A DNA stretch of 64,000 nt from assembly GCA_044344255.1 (NCBI GenBank), contig JBIJDH010000011.1, positions 1 through 64,000 of the forward strand, given 5' to 3'. Positions 5,084 through 17,778 of this stretch are shown piece by piece. A program made the translations under genes and the position numbers. This stretch comes from Myxococcota bacterium (lineage in GTDB: Bacteria; Myxococcota_A; UBA796; UBA2385). Position 1 is the stretch's first letter, and every line of letters begins with the position of its first letter. The notes below the pieces were generated by a model. The model did no database searches, was not told where the DNA came from, and saw only the letters and a program-made list of their open reading frames with translations.

Positions 5084-6028
5084 GTGTCTCAGCGGCCCGG
5101 TGATCTGGATGGGGTCGACCTCGCCCCCGGGGAGGCCGACCTCGGCGACCTCGAGCTCCGGGGCCTCCGCCACTTCGAGCTCGCCGCCACCACCCTCAAC
5201 TTTCGGGCGGCGGCGGGGCGGGCCCACCTCTCGCCGGCCGCCTTCAGCGAGAGCATCCACCGCCTCGAGGCGACGCTCGGCGTCGTGCTCTTTGACCGCA
5301 GCACCCGCTCGGTGCGCCTGAGCGCGGCGGGGGCCCGCCTGCTGCCCTCCGCGCAGGCCACCCTGGCCTCGGCGCGGGCCCTCCGCGCGGCCGCAGGGGG
5401 CGCGAAGCGGGCTTGGGAGCTGACGCTCGGCACCCGCGCCGAGCTCGGCCTCTCCTGGCTGACGCCGGCCCTGGACACGCTCGCGGCGGCGGACCCGCGG
5501 CGCACCATCCACCTCGCGGTGGGCGACTCCGGGCCGATGGTCGAGGCGCTGCGGGCCGGGCAGCTCGACGCCCTGGTGAGCAGCGCGCGGCTCGACGCCG
5601 AGGAGCTCGTGAGCGTGCCCCTCCACCCCGAGGCCTACCGCTTCGTGGGCGCCCCCGCGCTGCTCGAGGCCGCCCCCCTCCAGGGCGTCGAGGACGCGGC
5701 GCGGCACCACCTGCTCGACATCGGCCCCGGGCTGCCCCTCTTCCGCTACCTGCTCGACGCCTTCGGCGGCCCCGTCTGGCCCTTCCAGGGCCGCGCGTAC
5801 CTCGGCGGGATCGGCGCCGTCCGCGCCCGCGCCCTCGCCGGCCGCGGCGTGGCCGTGCTCCCCGAGTACCTCGTCCGGGGCGACCTCTCGAGCGGCGATC
5901 TCGTCGAGCTCCTCCCCGACCGGCGGCCGAGCGAGGACACCTTCCGCCTCGTCTGGCGGAGCGGCCACCCGCGGGCGGCGGCCCTGCTCCGCCTCGCCGA
6001 GGAGCTGCGGGCCCTCCCCTTACGCTGA
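5084..6028 (+). CDS. LysR family transcriptional regulator
   Basis: HTH motif LNFRAAAGRAHLSPAAFSESIHRLEATLGVVLFDRSTRSVRLSAAG; AGGAGG SD before the GTG start; LysR substrate-binding C-terminus. Confidence 0.95.
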   Translation: MSQRPGDLDGVDLAPGEADLGDLELRGLRHFELAATTLNFRAAAGRAHLSPAAFSESIHRLEATLGVVLFDRSTRSVRLSAAGARLLPSAQATLASARALRAAAGGAKRAWELTLGTRAELGLSWLTPALDTLAAADPRRTIHLAVGDSGPMVEALRAGQLDALVSSARLDAEELVSVPLHPEAYRFVGAPALLEAAPLQGVEDAARHHLLDIGPGLPLFRYLLDAFGGPVWPFQGRAYLGGIGAVRARALAGRGVAVLPEYLVRGDLSSGDLVELLPDRRPSEDTFRLVWRSGHPRAAALLRLAEELRALPLR

Positions 6029-6033
6029 GACGC

Positions 6034-7302
6034 TCACGCCGTGGACGGGCCCCCCACCCAGCGCTTGTCGGCCGCCGTCGGGCCCCAGCTCTCGAGCCAG
6101 ACCGGCCGGTGGGTCGCCTCGGCGGCGAGGGCCCGGGGGTCGAGCGCCTCGAGGACCGGCCGCGCCGCCTTGAGGTAAGCGCCGAGGCGCTCGCGGTGCC
6201 CGAGGTCGTGCGCGGGGCCGGGGAGGAGGGCGCCCTCGGCGCAGAGGTCGGCCGGGCCGGGGTCTTCGTAACGTCGACAGCCGATCGGGCCGGGCAGGCG
6301 GTCGAGGCAGGTGACCGCGAGAGCGTCGACCGGACAGACGGTGGTGGCGTAGCGCAGCAAGCTGGCGTCGAGGGCGCCGGTGCGAAAGACGCCCTGGGCC
6401 CCGTCGTCGCGGTTGTGGGGCTCGGCGATCGACAGGCTCCCTGCGGTGGGGAGGGGCCCGGCGCCGTGTCGGCAGGCGTAGGCCCGCGTGAGCCCGAGGC
6501 GGTGGAGGGGGCGGTCTCCGGCGAGGGCGAGGGCGCCCTGGCAGGTGGTGTCGCTCCAGGTGGTGTGGGGGTGGAAGCCCCAGGTCTCGTCGAGCAGCAC
6601 GCCTTGCGCCCCCTCGAAGATCAGCACCGGCTCAGCCTCGAGGCGGGCGGCCACCGCCTCGGGAGAGAGGCGACAGAGGCGGCGGGCGACACCCGCCCAG
6701 GCGTTGACAACCCGGTCGATGAGCTGCGGGTCGTCGAAGAGGGGGAGCGCGGTCGCGCCGAGAGACTGGAGCTCGGCTCGCTTGCGCTCACGCTGGCGGC
6801 CGAGGTGACGGCGCAGCGTCACGGGCGCGTCGAGATCGGCGACGGTGAGCACCTCGTCGGGGAAGTCGAGGGAGTCGGCGACACACTCCCCCACGCCGAC
6901 GCCGCAGGTGCCGTGGGCCGCCGCCCCGCGCAGCCGCTCGCGGAGCTGTCCGGCGGCCTGCTGGTAGGGGCTGATGACCCGCGCGCGGGCGTCGACCGCG
7001 GTGGCAGCCCAGGGATCGGGCCCCAGGGCCCCGAGGGCCTCGGCCTCGACCGCCATCCCCAGGGGGTGGAGCAGGAAGGCGGGGCCGAGCAGGGTCCTCG
7101 CCCCCGCAAAGTGGCCAGCGCCGAACTGGGAGAAGGTGTGGTGGCGGCCGTCGGCGGTGACGACGTTGTGCCCCGCCTGGGCGCCGCCGTTCCAGCGCAC
7201 GACGAGGCCGGCCCCCTCGCGGCGCACGAGGTGATCGACGACGCTGCCCTTCCCGGCGTCGCCGAAGCCGAGGTCGACCACCACCCAGCCGCGGCGCCTC
7301 AC
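6034..7302 (-). CDS. Divergent adenylosuccinate synthetase (PurA)-like protein
   Basis: Motifs DLGFGDAGKG, NGGAQAGHNV, GTCGVGVG, FEGAQGVLLD, TRAYACRHGAGPLPT, RTGALD, TCLD and ESWGP. The aspartate-binding GATTGRxR loop is replaced. GTGA overlap with the upstream vWA gene. Confidence 0.85.
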   Translation of the reverse strand: MRRRGWVVVDLGFGDAGKGSVVDHLVRREGAGLVVRWNGGAQAGHNVVTADGRHHTFSQFGAGHFAGARTLLGPAFLLHPLGMAVEAEALGALGPDPWAATAVDARARVISPYQQAAGQLRERLRGAAAHGTCGVGVGECVADSLDFPDEVLTVADLDAPVTLRRHLGRQRERKRAELQSLGATALPLFDDPQLIDRVVNAWAGVARRLCRLSPEAVAARLEAEPVLIFEGAQGVLLDETWGFHPHTTWSDTTCQGALALAGDRPLHRLGLTRAYACRHGAGPLPTAGSLSIAEPHNRDDGAQGVFRTGALDASLLRYATTVCPVDALAVTCLDRLPGPIGCRRYEDPGPADLCAEGALLPGPAHDLGHRERLGAYLKAARPVLEALDPRALAAEATHRPVWLESWGPTAADKRWVGGPSTA

Positions 7303-8252
7303 CGGCTGTGACCCGAGGGGGGCTCGCCCACCGGCAGGTCGGTCAGGCGCTCCCAGGTGCGGGGGGCGCCGTCGCGGCCCACGCAGGCGGCGAAGCCGAC
7401 GATGGCCTGGGCCACCCGGGCGGCCCGCTTGCGGGGCAGGCCTGCGGCGCTGAGCCGATCGATGACGGCGGGCAGGGAGCCAGCGCCGATCAGCAGCGCG
7501 ACGAGGCCGGCGGCGACGTGCGCCGCGTCCTCGGCGGCCCCGAGCCGCACCACCCGGTCACCGAGGAGCTCCCGCCAGGCCCGCTCGACGGCGGGGGCGG
7601 CGGTGGGGGAGAGGAGGAAGAAGGGCTCGAAGCGCTGCTGGAGCGCGTCGATGAGGGCGCGGATGGGCAGGTCGTCGTCGAGCGTGTCGCCGATGATGCG
7701 GGCCACCTGCCCCCGCGCGGCGGCGGGGTTCGGCCCGGCGTCACCGGTGATGAAGAGGACGCCGCGCTGGCCTCGTTTCTCGACACAGTCGAGGGCCATG
7801 TGGTGGGCGGCGAAGTACATCGCCAGCTCATAGGCCTCGTGGCGGCCCGCCCCGCCCCCCTCGAGCCAGAGGGCGGCCAGCCAGCGGTCGATGAGGGCGG
7901 CCGTGCTCTCGAACTGGCCCACCTGCAGCGGCGCCTGGTCTTGATCGGCGTGGCCGATCGCCATGAAGCAGAGCTGAGGGTCTGCCACGCCGACGTCGAG
8001 CAGCACGCGCATGAAGTCGGGGAGCGAGGTGGTGGCGAGCTGGCGCGGGATCTCCCCCATCGAGCCCGTCACGTCGAGGGCGAAGACCACCGCCAGCGAA
8101 TTGGGGTGCTCGTCGCTGTCGCGGCACTCCCGCCGCGCCCCGTGGGGGCGGAGCAGCGCCTGGCCCCCCGGCACCTGGACGGGCGGCGGCGCGTCCAGGC
8201 GCGCGGCGGTGAGTGCCTGGTGGGCCGCGTGACTGTATTCGCCGTATCCCAT
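7299..8252 (-). CDS. vWA domain protein (paralog B)
   Basis: MIDAS-like LDVTGSMG, APLQVGQFES, WLEGGG, EAYELAMYFA, LFITGD; N-terminus MGYGEYS. Confidence 0.85.
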   Translation of the reverse strand: MGYGEYSHAAHQALTAARLDAPPPVQVPGGQALLRPHGARRECRDSDEHPNSLAVVFALDVTGSMGEIPRQLATTSLPDFMRVLLDVGVADPQLCFMAIGHADQDQAPLQVGQFESTAALIDRWLAALWLEGGGAGRHEAYELAMYFAAHHMALDCVEKRGQRGVLFITGDAGPNPAAARGQVARIIGDTLDDDLPIRALIDALQQRFEPFFLLSPTAAPAVERAWRELLGDRVVRLGAAEDAAHVAAGLVALLIGAGSLPAVIDRLSAAGLPRKRAARVAQAIVGFAACVGRDGAPRTWERLTDLPVGEPPSGHSR

Positions 8253-8298
8253 GGATCACGTCCTCATCAGTGTCGACAACAGGGTGTCGTCGGCGGGG

Positions 8299-9261
8299 TC
8301 AGCGCCAGCCCGGCATCGGCAGCGGGTTGTAGGCCGCCGGCCCGTAGGCCTCGATCGAGGCCGCCGACAGGCGGTCGGCGAGGGCCCAGCCGTCGGTCTC
8401 CTCGCCGCGCAGGGCCCGGCTGAGGGCGCGCTCGATCGGCGCCGGCCGCTCCTTGCCCGGGAGCTCCCAGCCCGCCACCACCCGCGCGCAGCGACAGGCC
8501 ATCTGGAGGTCGAGGGCCGCGCTCAGGGCGGAGTGACCCTCATAGAGGCTGAGCCAGCGCGCAGGCCGCGCCACGAAGGGCAGGGGGGCGCCGCGCTGGG
8601 CTTGGGCCGCGGTCCAGCCGATGAGGAGGGCCCCGTGGTCTCGCGGGTGGACGAGGACATGGTCGGGCGTCACGGCGCCGTGGACGAAGCCCGCCCGGTG
8701 CACATAGCCGAGGAGCTCGAGCAGGCGTTTGAGCACCCACACCATCACCGGCCCGGGCACGCCCTGCGGATAGGCGCGGCCGACGTCGGTGAGCGTGTGG
8801 ACGAAGCCGCTCTTCCACCCATAGACCGTCGTGAGGCGCGGCCGATCGGACTGGACGAGGCCCATCGCCACGGGGGTGGGGAGGCGGCCGAGGAAGTGCG
8901 CGCCGCCTTGTGCGGGCCGCTCGTGCAGCGCCCGCAGCGTGTCCCACTCACGGCGGAGGAGGTCGGCGTCGGCGGGGGCCGCTAACACCTTCACCACCAC
9001 CGCCTCGCCGAGGCGATAGACCCAGCGCCCCCGATAGACCACCGCAGAGTCTCCCACCCCGAGCCGCCCCTCGAGGGCCCAGGTGCGGCCGCCGAGGTTG
9101 AGCCGGGGGCGCCCGTCGTCGGGGCGTTTCAAGGGGGCGGGGCCCCCCGGCCGACCGGGCAGGTTGTGGACGCCGCAGGCCGGACAGACGACGACGAGGT
9201 CTCGCCAGTTCGCCTCGAGCGGCGCGCCGCAGCCCTCACAAGACAGGGCGAAGTGGCTCAT
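8299..9261 (-). CDS. Zinc-ribbon plus Ser/Thr kinase-like protein, probable pseudokinase
   Basis: CEGC...CPAC at the N-terminus, Gly loop LGVGDSAVVY, VVVK, REWDTL. The catalytic loop reads HGAVTPDHV and the DFG position reads IGW. ATGA overlap with the upstream vWA. Confidence 0.8.
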   Translation of the reverse strand: MSHFALSCEGCGAPLEANWRDLVVVCPACGVHNLPGRPGGPAPLKRPDDGRPRLNLGGRTWALEGRLGVGDSAVVYRGRWVYRLGEAVVVKVLAAPADADLLRREWDTLRALHERPAQGGAHFLGRLPTPVAMGLVQSDRPRLTTVYGWKSGFVHTLTDVGRAYPQGVPGPVMVWVLKRLLELLGYVHRAGFVHGAVTPDHVLVHPRDHGALLIGWTAAQAQRGAPLPFVARPARWLSLYEGHSALSAALDLQMACRCARVVAGWELPGKERPAPIERALSRALRGEETDGWALADRLSAASIEAYGPAAYNPLPMPGWR

Positions 9262-10133
9262 GAGAGCACGCCCATCACGGCCTCCACCTCGGCCTCCCCG
9301 AGGCCGGCCGCGCGGAGGTGCTGGGCCCCGCGCTCGGGGGAGAGGCGCCCCTCGGCCACCCCCATCACCACGCCGAGCAGCTCGGTGATGGCCTCCACCT
9401 CCGGGAGCACGAGCACCCGCCGCCCGATCAGCCGCTCCCAGCCGGCGACGAGGCCGGGCGCGGGGGGCTGCCCGCGGGTGATCAGCACGTGAAAGAGCTG
9501 CCAGCCCGCCGCCGCCGCCAGGACGACCTCGGCGTCGACCACGTCCCCGGCGGGTCGGTAGCCGAAGACGCGGTGCACGTGGGCGCGCTGGAGGGGCTTG
9601 TTCGCGGCGTCGCCGATGGTGAAGAGGTAGCCCTTACGGCCGCGCCGCTGGAGGGCGTCGGTGGCGGTGTGGTGCGCGGCGAACCAGTGGGCGAGGAGGT
9701 AGGACTCGGGCGGGTCGCCGCCCATGCCCTCGAGCCAGATCCGCGTCAGCCACTGGTCCATCTCGAGGCCGCTCTCGAACTGGCCCACCTGGAGGGGGGC
9801 GCGATCGCAGACGGCGTCGCCGATGGCGGCGAAGCAGAGCTGAGGGTCCCCCACCCAGCCCTCCTCGACGAGGCGCACCATCAGCCGGCCGAGCAGGGCC
9901 TGCGCGAAGCGGGTGGGGATGTCGCCCATCGAGGCGGTGACGTCAAAGGCGACGATGATCGGCACCGACTCGGGGTGGTGCTCGCTGTCCCGCGCCTCGC
10001 GGAGCCGCATGTTGCGGGGGTCCATCAAGGGGTCAATGCTCCGCTCCAAGCGGAAGATCTCGGCGGGGGCGGTGGATGCCCGCTCGCTGCTCACCGCGCG
10101 GAAGGCGGCGTCGCTCCAGCTCGAGTACCCCAT
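9258..10133 (-). CDS. vWA domain protein (paralog A)
   Basis: FDVTASMG, APLQVGQFES, WLEGMGG, ESYLLAHWFA, KGYLFTIGD; N-terminus MGYSSWS; AAGGAG upstream. Confidence 0.85.
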   Translation of the reverse strand: MGYSSWSDAAFRAVSSERASTAPAEIFRLERSIDPLMDPRNMRLREARDSEHHPESVPIIVAFDVTASMGDIPTRFAQALLGRLMVRLVEEGWVGDPQLCFAAIGDAVCDRAPLQVGQFESGLEMDQWLTRIWLEGMGGDPPESYLLAHWFAAHHTATDALQRRGRKGYLFTIGDAANKPLQRAHVHRVFGYRPAGDVVDAEVVLAAAAGWQLFHVLITRGQPPAPGLVAGWERLIGRRVLVLPEVEAITELLGVVMGVAEGRLSPERGAQHLRAAGLGEAEVEAVMGVLS

Positions 10134-10150
10134 GACGACGCTCCGCTCCT

Positions 10151-10172
10151 TGCTTAGACTCCATGCTTAGAC
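10151..10172. promoter_or_regulatory. Direct repeat TGCTTAGAC x2 (13-bp period) in the divergent intergenic region; candidate regulator binding site
   Basis: Exact 9-mer at 10151-10159 and 10164-10172 within the 85-bp gap between divergent vWA genes. Confidence 0.35.
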
Positions 10173-10218
10173 ACTGCGCTGACCCGCAGACGCATATCCA
10201 GCTCACCCGGGAGGCCCC

Positions 10219-11559
10219 ATGGGACACGGTCAATACAGCCAGGACGTCGCCTACCAGACCCGCGCCGGGGGCTCCCGCTGGGCGAACCCCGGTCAGATCC
10301 ACCCCACGCTGGACCCCAAGGTGGGCCCCCGCGAGGTGAACAACGTCACCCCCGTGGTGATGGCGATGGACGTCACCCGCTCCCGCGGCGATGACACGCG
10401 GCGCCTCTACGAGCAGCTCCCCACGCTGATGAAGAAGATGGAGGAGCGCGGCTACGTCGAGGGCCCCGGCATCAGCTTCGCCGCCGTGGGCGACGCCGAC
10501 GCCGACAAGGCCCCCCTGCAGGTGGGCCAGTTCGAGGGAGACAACCGCCTCGACGCCGTGCTCTCCTCGATGTGGATCGAAGAGGGGGGCGGCGGCACGG
10601 GCCAGGAGTCCTATGAGCTCGCCGCCTGGTATTACGCGGGCACGAATTGCGTGCGCCTCGCCAAGAACGAAGGAGGAAAGGGTTTCTTTTTCTTCGTCGG
10701 CGACGAGGGTTTCTATCCCACGGTCTCCGGGGCCCACCGCGCCCGCCTGCTCGGGCAGGAGGCCAAGGACGTCCCCTCCGCCGAGGCCTTCGCGGCCCTC
10801 CAGCAGAAATTCCACACCTTCCTCATCTACCCGGCCACCACCATGGCCGAGCGGAAGTCCGACATCGACGCCGAGATCCGCAACCGCGTGCTCGCGGCGG
10901 GCGGCCAGCACGACAACGTCGACGTGCGCGTGACGCTGGTCTGGGACAACCGCAACGACCTTGACCTGCACGTCACGACGCCGAGCGGCGAGGTCATCTA
11001 CTTTGGGCACCGCGCCTCGGTCTGCGGCGGCGTGCTCGACGTCGACCGCAACCCCCGCGGCGAGACCACCACCCCCGTCGAGAACGTGCGCTGGGCCAAG
11101 GGCGCCGCCCCCGAGGGCGCCTATCAAGTGAAGGTCCGCAACTTCGCCTTCCACGAGGCGGTGCGGGCCCCGACCCCCTTCCGGGTGGAGATCGAGTGCG
11201 CAGGTGAGCTCGACTACTTCGAGGGCGTGATCAGCCCCAAGCTCGAGGCGGGGGCGGCGAGTGACGTCGACCTGCCCCCCTTCCGCTTCACCGCCGACGC
11301 CGCGGCCCGCAGCGCGCAGTACGAGGCCTACTCCGACGCCGTCGTGCTCGCCCAGTGGTCGAGCGTGCTGCCGGCCGGGCACGTCCTCCGGCTGAAAGAC
11401 GCCAACAACATCACCCACACGCTGCTCGGAGCCCTGGCCCTCGCCAACGGCAAAGAGACTCTGGAGAGCTACGGCGCCCGCCTCACCGCCGACGGCGTGA
11501 CCGCCGAGGCCGTGGCCGATGTGCGCGCGGCCCTCGCCGGGGTGGGGCGCGTCACCTGA
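10219..11559 (+). CDS. vWA domain protein (paralog C) with inserted YfaP/DUF2135-like domain
   Basis: MDVTRSRG, APLQVGQFEG, WIEEGGGG, ESYELAAWYY, KGFFFFVGD. Insert contains VRVTLVWDNRNDLDLHVTTPSGE...GGVLDVD...PVENVRW...GAYQVKV. GGAGG SD; N-terminus MGHGQYS. Confidence 0.85.
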   Translation: MGHGQYSQDVAYQTRAGGSRWANPGQIHPTLDPKVGPREVNNVTPVVMAMDVTRSRGDDTRRLYEQLPTLMKKMEERGYVEGPGISFAAVGDADADKAPLQVGQFEGDNRLDAVLSSMWIEEGGGGTGQESYELAAWYYAGTNCVRLAKNEGGKGFFFFVGDEGFYPTVSGAHRARLLGQEAKDVPSAEAFAALQQKFHTFLIYPATTMAERKSDIDAEIRNRVLAAGGQHDNVDVRVTLVWDNRNDLDLHVTTPSGEVIYFGHRASVCGGVLDVDRNPRGETTTPVENVRWAKGAAPEGAYQVKVRNFAFHEAVRAPTPFRVEIECAGELDYFEGVISPKLEAGAASDVDLPPFRFTADAAARSAQYEAYSDAVVLAQWSSVLPAGHVLRLKDANNITHTLLGALALANGKETLESYGARLTADGVTAEAVADVRAALAGVGRVT

Positions 11560-11616
11560 GCGGGGGGCGCGTCGCCTGAGTGGGGGGCCGACCGGGCGGG
11601 GCGCCGACCGGGCGGC

Positions 11617-13398
11617 TCACTCCGAGGTGAGGATCCAGAACCTTCGCCGCACGGTCCCGGCGTCGCCCTCGACCGTGTAGGTGATCGTGTTCTCGCCGCC
11701 GAGGACCACCTGATCGGTGATGTCGGTGGTCACGGTGTCCACCTGGAGGCCCGGGCACCAGCCGGAGCGGCCGTACCACCAGGTGCCGTACTGGTTGGGG
11801 ACGGTGCCGACGGCCACCTGGTCCATGCAGCCGTAATAGGTAGACGTGGTGGGGAAGTCGCGCACGTACTCGCCCGCGAGGTTGTCATTGATCACGAAGT
11901 GGTGCTCGGCGTTACAGAACTCGCCGCAGGTCTGACCGTGCTGAGAGATCACGGTGGCGAGGGTGACCCGCTTGGCGGTGGCGGGCACCAGGAAGGTGTC
12001 GGTGTTCACGTCGCCGAGGACGTAGTCCACTGCCTTTGGTTTGAGGGCGTCTCCTGTGTTGGAGAAGCGGAGCGAGCCCGTGAGGTCGTAGCTGTTGTCG
12101 GACTGGAAGCGGAGGCGCTTGTGGCCGCCCCCGGCGAGAAGGGGCAACATCGGGCTGATATCATAGACCCAGCGGCCCTCTCGGTGGTAGGTCGTGATCC
12201 AGCGCCCGATCTCGGTGTCACAGCCGCCGCAGGCGAGGTCGTCATAGCCGCTGCCGTCCTCCTTGCAGGTGTAGGTGCCGGCCCGCTCCTCGCCGATCGG
12301 GCTCCGACAGGCGCCCTCGAGCGTATCACCCGCCGCGCAGGCGGTGTCCGCATAGGGATTGACCGTGTCGGACGGCTCGTCACACAGATAGAGATAGGCC
12401 ATGTAGTCCCAGGCCGGGCAGGTGCCGTACTCCCCCTCGCCGATGCAGGCCATGGTGAGGTCGACCTGCAGCTTGTCCATCTCGGAGAGGGTGGCGGCGT
12501 CGGGGAGCGTGACGTCGACCGTCACGTCACCGCCCTGCTGGCCGTCAAAGACGGTCACCACGGTGGCGCCGTCGGCCGCCAGGGCCGCCTCTCGGTTGGC
12601 CTCGAAGTTGTAGTAGATGGCCTCGTTGGCCACCATGCCGAGGTTGGGCTGGAACCAGCCCACCGCCTCGTCGTAGCGCTTGGGATCGGCGTAGCTGCCG
12701 ATGTAGCGGATGCGCTGGGTCCGATCGATGGCCACACCCCAGGCGGGGCTCTTCATCGTCTCGCCGAGCCAGCCCGGCAGGTCGGTGTCGCGGGCGGTGA
12801 CGTAGTGGACGCGGCCCCGCCAGGCCTCGGCCTGGGCGCTGTCCATCCGCTCGAGCTCGTCCTCGATGTTGGCCTGCAGCTCATCGAGCGCGGTCGCCCG
12901 GGCCTCCTCGTTGCCGGAGTCGGGGATGAAGAACAGGTGCACGTTCTCGGGCAGGAGGTCGAAGAGGTCGTCGTGGTCGCGCTCCCAGCTCCCCGTGTCG
13001 AAGCCCGTGTTCTGCCGCGGCCGCTGCTGGATGAAGAGGTAGCTGTCGCAGCCGCTGTACTCGGCGGCGAGGCTCCAGTCCCCCTCGCGGGTGGGCAGCG
13101 TGAGATCAGCGGCGGTGGCGTAGAGCGTGTCGTCGTCGACGGCGTCCTCCCAAGGCCGCACGGGCAGGCCGAGCTCGGCGCAGGCGAGGGAGGGGTCGAT
13201 CACGCCGGTGTCGCCGCTGTCCCCGCCGTCGGTGCCGTCGGTGCCGTCACTCCCGTCCGTCCCGTCACCCCCGTCGGCGCCGTCGCTCCCGCCTCCGAGG
13301 ACGCTCCACGAGGACTGGGGCGCGCCGCCGCCGCCGCCGCCGCCGCCGGAGCAGGCCCAGAGGGTGAGGAGCGAGCAAGGGAGGAAGGAGCGGGGCAT
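11617..13398 (-). CDS. Lipoprotein with peptide-N-glycosidase F-related C-terminal domains
   Basis: ATG at 13398 after GAGG; lipobox LWAC; Gly/Asp linker; motifs CPAWDY, EIGRWITTY, DISPMLPLL, CGEFC, NQYGTWWYGRSGWCPG. Confidence 0.8.
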   Translation of the reverse strand: MPRSFLPCSLLTLWACSGGGGGGGGAPQSSWSVLGGGSDGADGGDGTDGSDGTDGTDGGDSGDTGVIDPSLACAELGLPVRPWEDAVDDDTLYATAADLTLPTREGDWSLAAEYSGCDSYLFIQQRPRQNTGFDTGSWERDHDDLFDLLPENVHLFFIPDSGNEEARATALDELQANIEDELERMDSAQAEAWRGRVHYVTARDTDLPGWLGETMKSPAWGVAIDRTQRIRYIGSYADPKRYDEAVGWFQPNLGMVANEAIYYNFEANREAALAADGATVVTVFDGQQGGDVTVDVTLPDAATLSEMDKLQVDLTMACIGEGEYGTCPAWDYMAYLYLCDEPSDTVNPYADTACAAGDTLEGACRSPIGEERAGTYTCKEDGSGYDDLACGGCDTEIGRWITTYHREGRWVYDISPMLPLLAGGGHKRLRFQSDNSYDLTGSLRFSNTGDALKPKAVDYVLGDVNTDTFLVPATAKRVTLATVISQHGQTCGEFCNAEHHFVINDNLAGEYVRDFPTTSTYYGCMDQVAVGTVPNQYGTWWYGRSGWCPGLQVDTVTTDITDQVVLGGENTITYTVEGDAGTVRRRFWILTSE

Positions 13399-13476
13399 GG
13401 CGACCTCTTCGGGGGAGCGCATCATACGCCGGGGGCGGGCCCGTAGGCGGCGGCGGGGAGCGGGTAGGATGGCCCC

Positions 13477-15303: not shown

Positions 15304-17778
15304 TCAGGCCTTGGGGCGCCCCTTCGTGGGGGTGGCCTCCGCCTTGACGGGCCCCCGGTTGAAGATCTCCTTGGCCGCGGCCTCGGGATCGACCGGCAGG
15401 CCGTCCTCCACGAAGGGCATCCGCCAGGCGCAGCCCTCCTTCCAGCGGGAGCAGCCCCAGGCGCTGCGCCCGACGATCACCTTGCCGCCTTCGCAGGCCG
15501 GACAGGGCAGGCCCTCGGGGTCTGGGGGAGCCCGCCGGGGGCGGTCGCCGTCGGCGAAGGAGAAGACCACCTTGTTCTCGGCGTCGAGCTTGAGGCCGGC
15601 CTCGAAGGCCTTGCCGGCCTTGCTCTTCCAGCCCTTGACCACCGGGGTCTGGCGCTCCTTCAAGAGCTGCTTGACCATGCGGGCGGAGACGTCGCGCTTC
15701 GCCATCGTGGCCCAGACGACGAAGCCGCAGGTGCCCGCGCAGGCGTAACGCCCGCGCCGCTCGGAGACAGGCTGGCCGCAGGTGGGGCAGGGGCCGAGCG
15801 AGGGGCCCTCGGCGGCCTGGCGCTCGGGCGCCGGCGGGGTGGCGCCCTTCATCTCGCCCACCATGGCGCCGAGGCGCTCGCGCACGTCGGCCATGAAGCG
15901 CGCGCGGCTCTCCTTGCCCTCGGCGACGTGGTGCAGCCGGGCCTCCCAGCGGCCGGTGAGGGCCGGGCTCTTCAGCTCCTCGACCGGCAGGGCGGCGATG
16001 AGGGCCACCCCGCGGCCCAGCGCGTGCAGCTCCTTGCCCCGCCGCTCGATGAAGCCGCGCTTGAGCAGGGTCTCGATGATGGCGGCGCGGGTGGCGGGGG
16101 TGCCGAGGCCGCCGGCGCGCAGGGCCCGCTTGAGCTCGTCGTCGTCGAGGGCCTTGCCCGCCGTCTCCATCTGGTAGAGCAGGCTCGCCTCGGTGTGGGG
16201 GCGCGGCGGGCGCGTGGCCCCGGCGAGGACGGCGGGATCGACCACCTGGGCGCGGCCGCCGACGGTGAGCAGGGGGAGCTCTCGGTCCTTGGAGGCCGCG
16301 GGAGGGTCGATCGCCTGCCACCCGCGCTCGCGGCAGACCCGCCCGCGGGCGCGGAGGCGGGGCGGAGAGGGCAGCGGCGCCGGGGCCCGGGCGGCGGGGA
16401 CCTCGACGACGAGGGCGGTGAGGTCAAAGATGGCGTCGGGGGAGAGCGCGGCGAGGAGGCGCCGGGCGATGAGGTCGTAGATGCGCTTCTGGTCGGGCTG
16501 GAGGCCCCCGGGATCGGGCCGCGCGGCGGTGGGGAGGATGGCGTGGTGATCGCCCACCTCGTCGGCGTTGACCACCCGGCGGCCGGGCTGGATGGGGCGG
16601 GCGAGGATGGCGCGGGCGGCCGCGGTGTAGGGCGGCAGATGCGCGAGGCCCTGGACCACCGGCGGCAGCTCGGCCACCTGATCGGGCGTGATGTAGCGGG
16701 CGTCGGTGCGCGGGTAGGTGATGAGCCGCGCCTCGTAGAGCGACTGCGCGAGCTCGAGGGTGCGGTCGGCCGACAGGCCATACCGCTGGTTCGCCCGGCG
16801 CTGGAGGCTGGTGAGGTCATAGAGCAGGGGCGGGGCCTCGCGCTTCTCCTTCCGCTCCGAGCTGAGCACCACCGCGCGCTGCTCCCGGAGGGCCTCGACC
16901 AGGGTGTGGGCGAGGATGGCGGAGGGGAGCCGCTCGATGGGGAGCGCGTCCTCCTCGCCCTCCGCGCCCTCGGCGAGCCTCGCCTGACCGCCCTCGGGGG
17001 GCTGCTCCTGGAGGTCGTGGCGGAACCAGCGGGCGCGGAGGCGACCGCCCTCGGCCTGGCCGTCGATCCCGCCTTCGATCACGCCTTCGATGACCCTTTC
17101 GATCAGCAGTGTGGCCTCCACCCGCCAGAAGTCCTCGGGGACGAAGTCCGCGATCTCCCGGTCTCTCCCGACGATCATCGCCAGGGTGGGGGTCTGCACC
17201 CGGCCGACGCTGAGGAGCTGATCGCCGCCGGCCGAGCGGGCGAGGCAGGTCATCGCGCGGGTGGCGTTGAGGCCGACGAGCCAGTCCGCCTCGGAGCGGC
17301 AGCGGGCGGCGTCCCCCAGCGCGTCGTAGGCCGCGGCGGGCTTACGCGCGGCCCAGGCGCCCTTGATCGCCCCCTCGGTGAGGCTGGCCAGCCAGAGCCG
17401 GCTCACGCGGGCCTTGCCGCCGGCGGCCTCCCAGACGTAGCGGAAGATGAGCTCCCCCTCGCGGCCGGCGTCGCAGGCGTTGACGACCTCGTCGAGGCCG
17501 CGCTGCTGGATGAGCTTGGAGAGCAACGCCCAGTGTTCGCGGGCCCCCTCACGCACCTGGAGGGCGAAGGCGGCGGGCACCATCGGCAGGCTGTCGAAGC
17601 TCCACCGCTTCCAGGCGGGGTCGTAATGCTCGGGCTCGACGAGCTCGCACATGTGGCCAATGCACCACGTGATCTGAATGCCCTCCCCCTCGAGGCAGCC
17701 CTCGCCCCGGCGTGTCGCGCCGAGCACCCGACCGAGGTCGCGGGCGACAGAGGGCTTCTCGGCGACGACCAGCAGCAG
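15304..17778 (-). CDS. topB: DNA topoisomerase III with C-terminal zinc ribbons; apparent CTG start
   Basis: AEKPSVA, DAGREGELIF, GRVQTPTL, ITYPRTD (catalytic Tyr), DHHAILPT, GLGTPATRA. The conserved N-terminus lies upstream of the called 17727 start; the CTG at 17778 follows GGAGG plus a 5-nt spacer. Confidence 0.92.
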   Translation of the reverse strand: MLLVVAEKPSVARDLGRVLGATRRGEGCLEGEGIQITWCIGHMCELVEPEHYDPAWKRWSFDSLPMVPAAFALQVREGAREHWALLSKLIQQRGLDEVVNACDAGREGELIFRYVWEAAGGKARVSRLWLASLTEGAIKGAWAARKPAAAYDALGDAARCRSEADWLVGLNATRAMTCLARSAGGDQLLSVGRVQTPTLAMIVGRDREIADFVPEDFWRVEATLLIERVIEGVIEGGIDGQAEGGRLRARWFRHDLQEQPPEGGQARLAEGAEGEEDALPIERLPSAILAHTLVEALREQRAVVLSSERKEKREAPPLLYDLTSLQRRANQRYGLSADRTLELAQSLYEARLITYPRTDARYITPDQVAELPPVVQGLAHLPPYTAAARAILARPIQPGRRVVNADEVGDHHAILPTAARPDPGGLQPDQKRIYDLIARRLLAALSPDAIFDLTALVVEVPAARAPAPLPSPPRLRARGRVCRERGWQAIDPPAASKDRELPLLTVGGRAQVVDPAVLAGATRPPRPHTEASLLYQMETAGKALDDDELKRALRAGGLGTPATRAAIIETLLKRGFIERRGKELHALGRGVALIAALPVEELKSPALTGRWEARLHHVAEGKESRARFMADVRERLGAMVGEMKGATPPAPERQAAEGPSLGPCPTCGQPVSERRGRYACAGTCGFVVWATMAKRDVSARMVKQLLKERQTPVVKGWKSKAGKAFEAGLKLDAENKVVFSFADGDRPRRAPPDPEGLPCPACEGGKVIVGRSAWGCSRWKEGCAWRMPFVEDGLPVDPEAAAKEIFNRGPVKAEATPTKGRPKA

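Follow-up and report, generated by a model that had tools for sequence, protein, structure and literature searches.

The window analysed here, a stretch of 64,000 nucleotides of a Myxococcota bacterium (assembly GCA_044344255.1, contig JBIJDH010000011.1, positions 1 to 64,000), carries on its minus strand a gene for a protein that resembles adenylosuccinate synthetase (PurA) in its fold and catalytic residues and in which the binding site for aspartate has been replaced. The protein belongs to a widespread and apparently undescribed branch of repurposed PurA, found in bacteria and phages, whose gene is nearly always accompanied by a gene for a vWA protein that starts with Met-Gly. We tentatively propose, at somewhat less than an even chance, that the enzyme may be a GTP-driven ligase that attaches inosine monophosphate (IMP), or a 6-oxopurine nucleotide related to it, to the amine of the N-terminal glycine of its vWA partner. 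The features of the gene are as follows.

7302..6034, minus strand: PurA-like open reading frame (ORF), GTG start, 422 residues, intact; predicted PurA-like GTP-dependent ligase with the catalytic core kept and the aspartate pocket rebuilt.
6423..6382, minus strand: replacement of the aspartate loop, E294-R307, EPHNRDDGAQGVFR; family consensus E-x-H-N-x4-W-Q-G-x-F-R.
6312..6301, minus strand: guanine-reading TCLD, T331-D334; E. coli D333 is kept as D334 and Lys331 is replaced.

The protein is a member of the PF00709 fold family that falls short of the definitions of both PurA and PurZ. In a profile scan of the 422-residue sequence, Pfam PF00709 was matched with 169 bits against a cut-off of 27, and the cut-offs of the NCBIfam PurA models NF002223 (138 vs 402 bits) and TIGR00184 (118 vs 396 bits) and of the PurZ model NF038379 (38 vs 300 bits) were all missed. 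An AlphaFold2 model, with a 148-row alignment as input, had a mean predicted local distance difference test (pLDDT) score of 96.4, and its top structural matches were long-type PurA (E. coli 1CG3, TM-score 0.82). In the structural comparison that an earlier note on this DNA had proposed, the model matched E. coli PurA with a Z of 42.5 and a root-mean-square deviation (rmsd) of 2.5 Å over 392 residues, and the PurZ structures with a Z of 29-35. The phylogeny proposed there was also run, as a quick tree of 56 rows (47 family members, 7 canonical PurA, and 2 PurZ, with archaeal PurA left out) that gave long-branch warnings; the 47 family rows fell on one side with an SH-aLRT of 99, separate from the canonical PurA and PurZ rows. 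The family therefore appears, on sequence, to be a large separate branch of the PurA fold that is neither PurZ nor the host PurA. The host genome has a second, canonical PurA on contig C45 (588 bits), and the PurA-like gene is thus an extra. Because a contig from another sequencing run (X17) covers positions 5900-11700 unbroken (it differs at 40 letters and by 6 gaps, and the gaps that are listed all fall outside the PurA-like ORF), and because the replacement residues are kept in 57 diverse homologues, the gene is neither an assembly artefact nor decaying.

For the mapping of residues, homologues were aligned to E. coli PurA from NC_000913.3, for which the roles of the catalytic, aspartate-loop and other residues are known from enzymology, and conservation was counted over 57 homologues mutually less than 50% identical, taken from 167 enzyme-vWA pairs. 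Every motif listed in the earlier note was found in the intact ORF: GDAGKG (G14-G19), QAGHN (Q42-N46), GTCGVGVG (G131-G138), EGAQG (E230-G234), TCLD, and the altered loop. The claim that the activation chemistry is retained was borne out across the family, with D15 (E. coli D13), K18 (K16), and H45 (H41) each present in 57 of 57 homologues and Q233 (Q224) in 56. Thr or Ser occupies the position of T248 (E. coli T239) in 55 of the 57, and G40, E118, and the S-x-G-P motif (E. coli numbering) are likewise kept. Since D334 is invariant (Asp in 57/57 diverse homologues and in 148/148 alignment rows) and S-x-G-P is kept, GTP is the likely phosphate donor; only the Lys of TKLD is changed, and the suggestion that a different nucleoside triphosphate might be used was not supported for this protein. 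In the PurZ row of the ATP type, Asn stands in place of D333.

The aspartate loop, reported as lost at about 6367-6423, is indeed gone, and a family-conserved loop stands in its place; E294-R307 corresponds to 6423..6382, and an end at 6367 extends on to D312. This loop is one residue shorter than the E. coli aspartate loop and has no Arg aligned to R303 or R305. Elsewhere in the pocket, T300 is replaced by Trp (46 of the 57 homologues), T301 by Gln (55), and V273 by His (57), and a new Asn (N297) is found in 55. On this pattern of conservation, the aspartate pocket has been rebuilt and not merely lost, and it is very likely, as the earlier note inferred, that a different amine is accepted. 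The IMP-phosphate site has also changed, with N38 replaced by Gln (57), T129 by Cys (55), and S240 by Trp (51). The equivalents of K140, R143, and D231 are not conserved, and the helix aligned to R143 contains no conserved Arg. We compared the IMP contacts with the H. pylori contact table in the available part of PMC11571797, with the conversion from H. pylori to E. coli numbering inferred; there, Arg135 of H. pylori, the R143 equivalent, caps the IMP 5′-phosphate from the partner subunit. Residues H55, F57, Q59, E86, and H279 are new invariant residues of the family. The remodelled IMP-phosphate site, the vWA partner with its N-terminal Gly, the pseudokinase, and the spread in bacteria and phages all go beyond the earlier note.

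Because PurB was not found in small genomes that carry the enzyme, the product is argued not to be adenylosuccinate. In five such genomes the PurA-like enzyme is the sole PF00709 match, and PurB was found in none of them (0/5). An even 200-genome sample of the phylum of one of these genomes added two more carriers in which PurB was not found, giving 0/7 among carriers compared with 3/3 among controls with a canonical-range PurA match from the same phylum sample.

The PurA-like gene is the last of a minus-strand operon in the order vWA2, pseudokinase, vWA3, PurA-like, with 4-nt overlaps at two junctions and a third vWA gene lying divergently.

10219..11559, plus strand: vWA protein 1, 446 residues, divergent, starts MGHGQYS, with a domain of about 120 residues inserted internally.
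9258..10133, minus strand: vWA protein 2, 291 residues, starts MGYSSWS; it opens the operon and has a 4-nt overlap with the start of the pseudokinase gene.
8299..9261, minus strand: Zn-ribbon pseudokinase, 320 residues; Lys and alphaC Glu are kept, the catalytic-loop Asp is Ala (HGA), and DFG is IGW.
7299..8252, minus strand: vWA protein 3, 317 residues, starts MGYGEYS, with DVTGSM as its MIDAS motif; there is a 4-nt overlap between its stop and the start of the PurA-like gene.

The association of enzyme and vWA protein is close to obligate. A vWA gene was found at 77/80 GTDB and 28/30 viral loci and a kinase-like gene at 66/80 and 22/30, the 80 GTDB loci being the best-scoring set and both sets including contig ends and near-duplicates (e.g. 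16 Variovorax loci). Where at least 2.5 kb was available on both sides, all 66 of the enzyme-centred viral loci had a vWA gene, and in the reverse direction, among loci centred on the vWA gene, the enzyme was found at 58 of 61 from viruses and 16 of 18 from metagenomes. The flanking genes at about 50 bacterial loci were mostly unrelated to one another. Two vWA copies around one enzyme gene were also seen at four loci from Myxococcota or Deltaproteobacteria (L016, L018, L024, and L036).

The most constant feature of the partner is its N terminus. A start codon followed by Gly was found in 275 of 278 unique vWA sequences, compared with 213 of 823 internal control windows (26%); of these 275 starts, 262 fit M-G-x-[GST]-x-[YWF]-[SDTN] and 210 have a Shine-Dalgarno-like sequence. 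One of the three misses is a frameshifted gene, and in another the motif follows an Ile codon. Of 150 independent gene calls from databases, 140 start with MG; among the others, 4 are apparently truncated and 3 extended upstream. The enzyme itself has Gly at position 2 in 3 of 102 gene calls. All three vWA copies in the window start with MG, including vWA1 and the altered vWA3, in which several family-conserved residues are changed. Methionine aminopeptidase removes Met1 when the second residue is Gly, which would leave a free, unhindered N-terminal amine. In vWA1, which matches phrog_2971 at residues 39-204 and phrog_1735 at residues 215-335, the N terminus also stays free because the extra domain is inserted internally; this insert (residues 215-335) matches phrog_1735 and phrog_23228, both of unknown function, with a weak P_proprotein match.

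The vWA model (pLDDT 92) places the vWA fold at about residues 49-292, with residues 1-48 as an extension outside the matched fold. The protein has both the fold and an intact MIDAS of the form D-x-T/S-G-S, in keeping with the D-x-S/T-x-S motif, and its best fold match is to integrin beta I domains (Z 15.7, rmsd 3.4 Å, 200 aligned residues). The Pfam VWA model did not match the window copies, and no sequence relative of the vWA protein was found among solved structures.

The kinase-like protein is probably not an active Hanks-type protein kinase, as judged from its motifs. The copy in the window lacks the Asp of HRD and that of DFG, and across the family the catalytic position is Ala in 55, Asp in 9, and Ser in 2 of 67 sequences. 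At 29 viral loci (e.g. L197:4660-4995), a helical protein of about 115 residues without annotation is encoded next to the vWA gene, on its immediate upstream side at the loci listed; it had no Pfam or PADLOC match. The viral loci comprise 129 with the kinase only, 29 with the helical protein only, 0 with both, and 24 with neither, which suggests that the two fill an interchangeable adaptor slot.

Part of the family is linked to NAD metabolism. A gene for NrtR (Nudix plus winged helix) was found at 11/80 bacterial and 2/30 viral loci, and an NrtR-type box was found upstream of the module at 13 of 101 loci against 3.1 expected, the pattern GTGT-N7-ACAC having been derived from these loci and fitting the GT-N7-AC core in the available part of PMC2330246. 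Genes for NAMPT, NADAR, TROVE, Band-7, and R2K recur near phage copies, although no background rate accompanies these occurrences. At the window locus no nrtR gene is adjacent, and positions 10120-10235 contain no GTGT-N7-ACAC box (best 5/8), where it should be considered that NrtR motifs differ between lineages according to the same part of PMC2330246. Some members of the family thus have a real link to NAD, which for the window locus is unproven. Elsewhere in the genome, on contig C48 at about 113300-117600 (minus strand), pncB-like and nadE-like genes (both by eye) and nrtR stand in a row, with a GTGT-N7-ACAC box upstream of pncB.

We suggest the following course for the reaction. With GTP as donor, O6 of IMP, or of a related nucleotide with a 6-oxopurine base, would be phosphorylated, giving the usual 6-phosphoryl intermediate. 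Met1 of the vWA protein would be removed, freeing the Gly amine, and the Gly-x-Gly-x-aromatic tail would bind in the rebuilt His/Trp/Gln/Asn pocket. The amine of the new Gly1 would then displace the phosphate to form an N6-(glycyl-protein) adenylate. We prefer this glycyl reading because it would jointly explain why the pocket is rebuilt, why the partner is obligate and its N-terminal Gly fixed, and why PurB is missing. The loss of the Thr/Arg set would fit a glycyl peptide because Gly lacks a carboxylate in its side chain and a peptide offers no free alpha-carboxylate, and a pocket of amide and aromatic residues would suit a peptide backbone better than a dicarboxylate. As to purpose, the module might, speculatively, act as a nucleotide sink or as a switch during stress that involves NAD/ADP-ribose and during conflict with phages, the pseudokinase serving as an adaptor without catalytic activity. 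The full picture, in which a third branch of PurA would bond purine C6 to the vWA glycine and bacteria and large phages would use the module as a covalent hypoxanthine-nucleotide sink or switch in NAD/ADP-ribose-linked conflict, is possible and is held with more doubt than the ligase reaction by itself.

Several points weigh against this proposal. The genomes without PurB are incomplete metagenome-assembled genomes, hence PurB is described as not found and not as absent, and the NAD link is confined to a minority of loci that does not include the window locus. The family Trp302 (126/148) is absent in the window copy, which has Ala302. The near-invariant R307 (166/167), aligned to E. coli R306, itself variable in canonical PurA, could assume the role of R305 and bind a free amino acid. 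Among the 150 database vWA calls, three look like true exceptions to the MG start (MAKG, MADK, and MMVK). The tail of the vWA protein may be packed against the rest of the same chain, and the role of Gly2 may be structural, since residues 1-10 have a mean pLDDT of 85 in the monomer model. Physical contact between the enzyme and the vWA protein is an assumption. In an analysis of coevolution between the two proteins (167 pairs, effective number 115), which is counted neither for nor against the proposal, the pair R121/D47 reached a Z of 9.0 compared with a null maximum of 6.6, a signal that comes from 11 Lys/Asp pairs, possibly of one lineage, and other pairs did not rise above the null. A search for enzyme-vWA fusions gave five longer vWA homologues and no credible fusion, a negative of little weight: the four that contain PurA-like parts are apparent artefacts of a frameshift or deletion, and one is probably chimeric.

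The strongest alternative, which we consider unlikely and yet serious, is that the enzyme is an aminase that uses GTP and ammonia, a small amine, or an amino acid such as glycine to convert IMP or a deaminated adenine nucleotide directly to the adenine form with no need of PurB. Candidate substrates would be IMP, ITP, dITP, IDP-ribose, and deamino-NAD, and the vWA protein would be an obligate subunit with a structural Gly2. Such a reaction would agree with the bulky His, Trp, and Gln that occupy the aspartate pocket, with PurB at 0/7 in the carrier small genomes, and with the NAD context, that is, the adjacent NrtR or NrtR-type boxes of a minority (13/101 vs 3.1) and the NAMPT and NADAR genes near phage copies; the loss of the R143 equivalent could moreover admit a substituted phosphate. 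However, it leaves the free Met-Gly start of the vWA protein (275/278) and the three vWA copies here unexplained, no glutaminase-type neighbour was found among the flanking genes in Pfam scans, and the host already has PurA.

It is less probable still, and in our estimate distinctly unlikely, that the ligase modifies a third protein at a Lys or the N terminus, with the MIDAS metal of the vWA protein gripping the client, the pseudokinase or its coiled-coil alternative recruiting it, and Gly2 as an assembly element. The intact MIDAS, the closeness of the vWA fold to integrin beta I domains, and the mutual exclusion of pseudokinase and helical protein, as expected of interchangeable adaptors, would all suit this arrangement. 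The module nevertheless offers no fourth conserved gene as a candidate client, and because it spans many host phyla as well as phages, any such client would need to be present almost everywhere.

It is very improbable that the enzyme is PurZ-like and serves a pathway for modified bases, making N6-substituted (d)AMP for phage DNA. Such a function is implied by the labels of PHROG 1211 and RefSeq, and the gene is frequent in large phages. Against it, the catalytic Asp is kept where the PurZ rows of our alignment, in agreement with the accessible text of PMC12884076, have Ser, so that the denial in the earlier note that the protein is PurZ was upheld; the aspartate loop is gone, although PurZ uses aspartate according to the same text; the family forms a separate clade and is mostly chromosomal in bacteria; and a DNA polymerase gene lies beside both PurZ loci compared, with none among the recurring neighbour families scanned. 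Slightly less probable again is a futile IMP-dependent GTPase, in which water would hydrolyse the 6-phosphoryl intermediate and the drain of GTP would serve as a stress or defence output under the control of the vWA protein and pseudokinase. The retention of the activation residues with loss of the amine-binding ones and the patchy presence (6/60 relatives) speak for such an enzyme, but a new pocket conserved in 57 diverse lineages implies a specific second substrate, lytic phages carry the enzyme, and PADLOC had no match for the enzyme or the vWA proteins. An ordinary divergent adenylosuccinate synthetase, as the database names of homologues and the whole-fold match to PurA would have it, is the least credible of all given scores of 138 vs 402 and 118 vs 396 bits, a canonical copy of 588 bits on C45, the absence of the TTGR loop, and PurB at 0/7 where the enzyme is the sole PurA-family match.

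Members of the family were found in Myxococcota, Acidobacteriota, Chloroflexota, Actinomycetota, Verrucomicrobiota, Planctomycetota, Pseudomonadota, and Patescibacteria-type records, and most copies are held by bacterial chromosomes. Among relatives of the host the presence is patchy, with 6 of 60 genomes scoring above 350 bits against the family profile. At E ≤1e-10 there are 234 matching phage records, of which 201 are named Mycobacterium, and among the matches listed, 52 records of phage homologues are 38-39% identical over 98% of the query. The partner vWA profile matched 1074 clusters at 50% identity (E up to 1e-30). A deeper phage subgroup with an MG-starting vWA protein is represented by L115 (Vibrio phage phiKT1024) and L116 (Rhizobium phage RHph_TM30); the L115 enzyme has Asn at the D333 position, retains N38, and, by these residues, may take another nucleoside triphosphate.

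PHROG 1211, which matches the window protein, and several RefSeq phage records bear the label "2-aminooxy adenylosuccinate synthetase", a PurZ-type label that the kept catalytic Asp contradicts. RefSeq records of cluster C mycobacteriophages (e.g. NC_008207.1) carry it too, probably carried over from PHROG 1211, and the Bxz1 orthologue keeps the catalytic Asp. In the literature searched, the module was found only as an annotation mention in the available part of PMC9476963; term searches for it in PMC9503650, PMC7824862, PMC2330246, and PMC10892097 found none, and work on NAD pathways, RNA repair, Ter, or nucleotide-centric systems may mention the neighbourhood. PMC12884076 collected 481 viral PF00709 proteins and, in the part available, treats only the PurZ group. 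PADLOC 2.0 (2023 library) gave no match for the enzyme, vWA proteins, or helical protein and only generic matches for the kinase.

Around the operon, one further feature may concern its regulation.

10151 and 10164 (10151..10172), no strand: 9-bp direct repeat TGCTTAGAC with 13-bp spacing, in the 85-bp divergent intergenic region.

The 9-mer has only one further occurrence in the genome, and the repeat is a possible operator of an unknown regulator. RNA data from one run with a small share gave 4 short contigs, all on vWA1 and none on the enzyme. A LysR regulator (5084-6028, plus strand) converges on the PurA-like gene with a 5-bp gap and is not a conserved neighbour. On the other side, the gene for a large protein (11617-13404, minus strand), whose C-terminal domain resembles PNGase F (PF09113, 82 bits), converges on vWA1, and an 807-residue ORF (15304-17727, minus strand) resembles by eye a type IA topoisomerase with Zn-finger repeats.

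Among known systems, the closest in gene arrangement is that of the cluster C mycobacteriophage Bxz1, in which gp247, gp248, and gp250 belong to the kinase, vWA, and PurA-like families in the same order, with a small ORF, gp249, between. They are annotated as Ser/Thr kinase, hypothetical protein, and "PurA-like adenylosuccinate synthetase", the last with 39% identity over 98% of the query, and no printed function was found for them in the literature beyond annotation. According to the available part of PMC9476963, all C1 phages conserve a gene for a Ser/Thr kinase as well as one that is PurA-like. In the Bxz1 pseudokinase the N-terminal segment bears an HPD and is J-domain-like by eye, whereas that of the window has a Zn ribbon instead.

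A regulatory likeness is seen to the NrtR regulons, since at a minority of loci the module lies behind an NrtR gene or GT-N7-AC boxes. The regulon genes nrtX and nrtY encode a Band-7 protein and an NAD-kinase-like protein. The main text of that study (Rodionov et al. 2008, PMC2330246), in the part available, mentions neither purA nor adenylosuccinate and does not describe nrtX and nrtY.

The proposed reaction also has parallels in which a protein amine is used. Lasso-peptide cyclases are relatives of asparagine synthetase that accept a peptide N-terminal amine in place of ammonia, and in the coronavirus NiRAN-nsp9 pair a pseudokinase uses a protein N-terminal amine as the nucleophile. The analogy is in logic only, and their folds and products are unrelated to those of the PurA-like enzyme.

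Compared with PurA (EC 6.3.4.4; 1CG0/1CG3), the family enzyme shares the full-length long-type fold, the GDxGKG P-loop, EGAQG, and D13/K16/H41/Q224/D333. It differs from PurA in that it is accessory, patchy, and tied to a vWA gene, its aspartate loop is replaced, and PurB was not found in the tested small genomes. If the vWA glycine is the amine, this would be a protein modification of a new kind that draws on core purine chemistry, and even if that reading is false, the family is an enzyme with a defined partner that databases label as PurA or PurZ. PurZ/PurZ0 (NF038379; 7ODX, 6FM1, 7VF6) is likewise a repurposed PurA paralogue of the same fold (Z 33-35) in phages. In PurZ the nucleotide was changed (Ser for Asp13, dGMP) and aspartate was kept, according to the accessible text of PMC12884076, whereas the family enzyme has kept Asp13 and lost the aspartate site, and its P-loop is GDAGKG compared with GSTGKG and GSEAKG in PurZ/PurZ0. 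PurZ, one well-known offshoot of PurA, thus changed the nucleotide and led to Z-genomes, whereas the present branch appears to have changed the amine instead.

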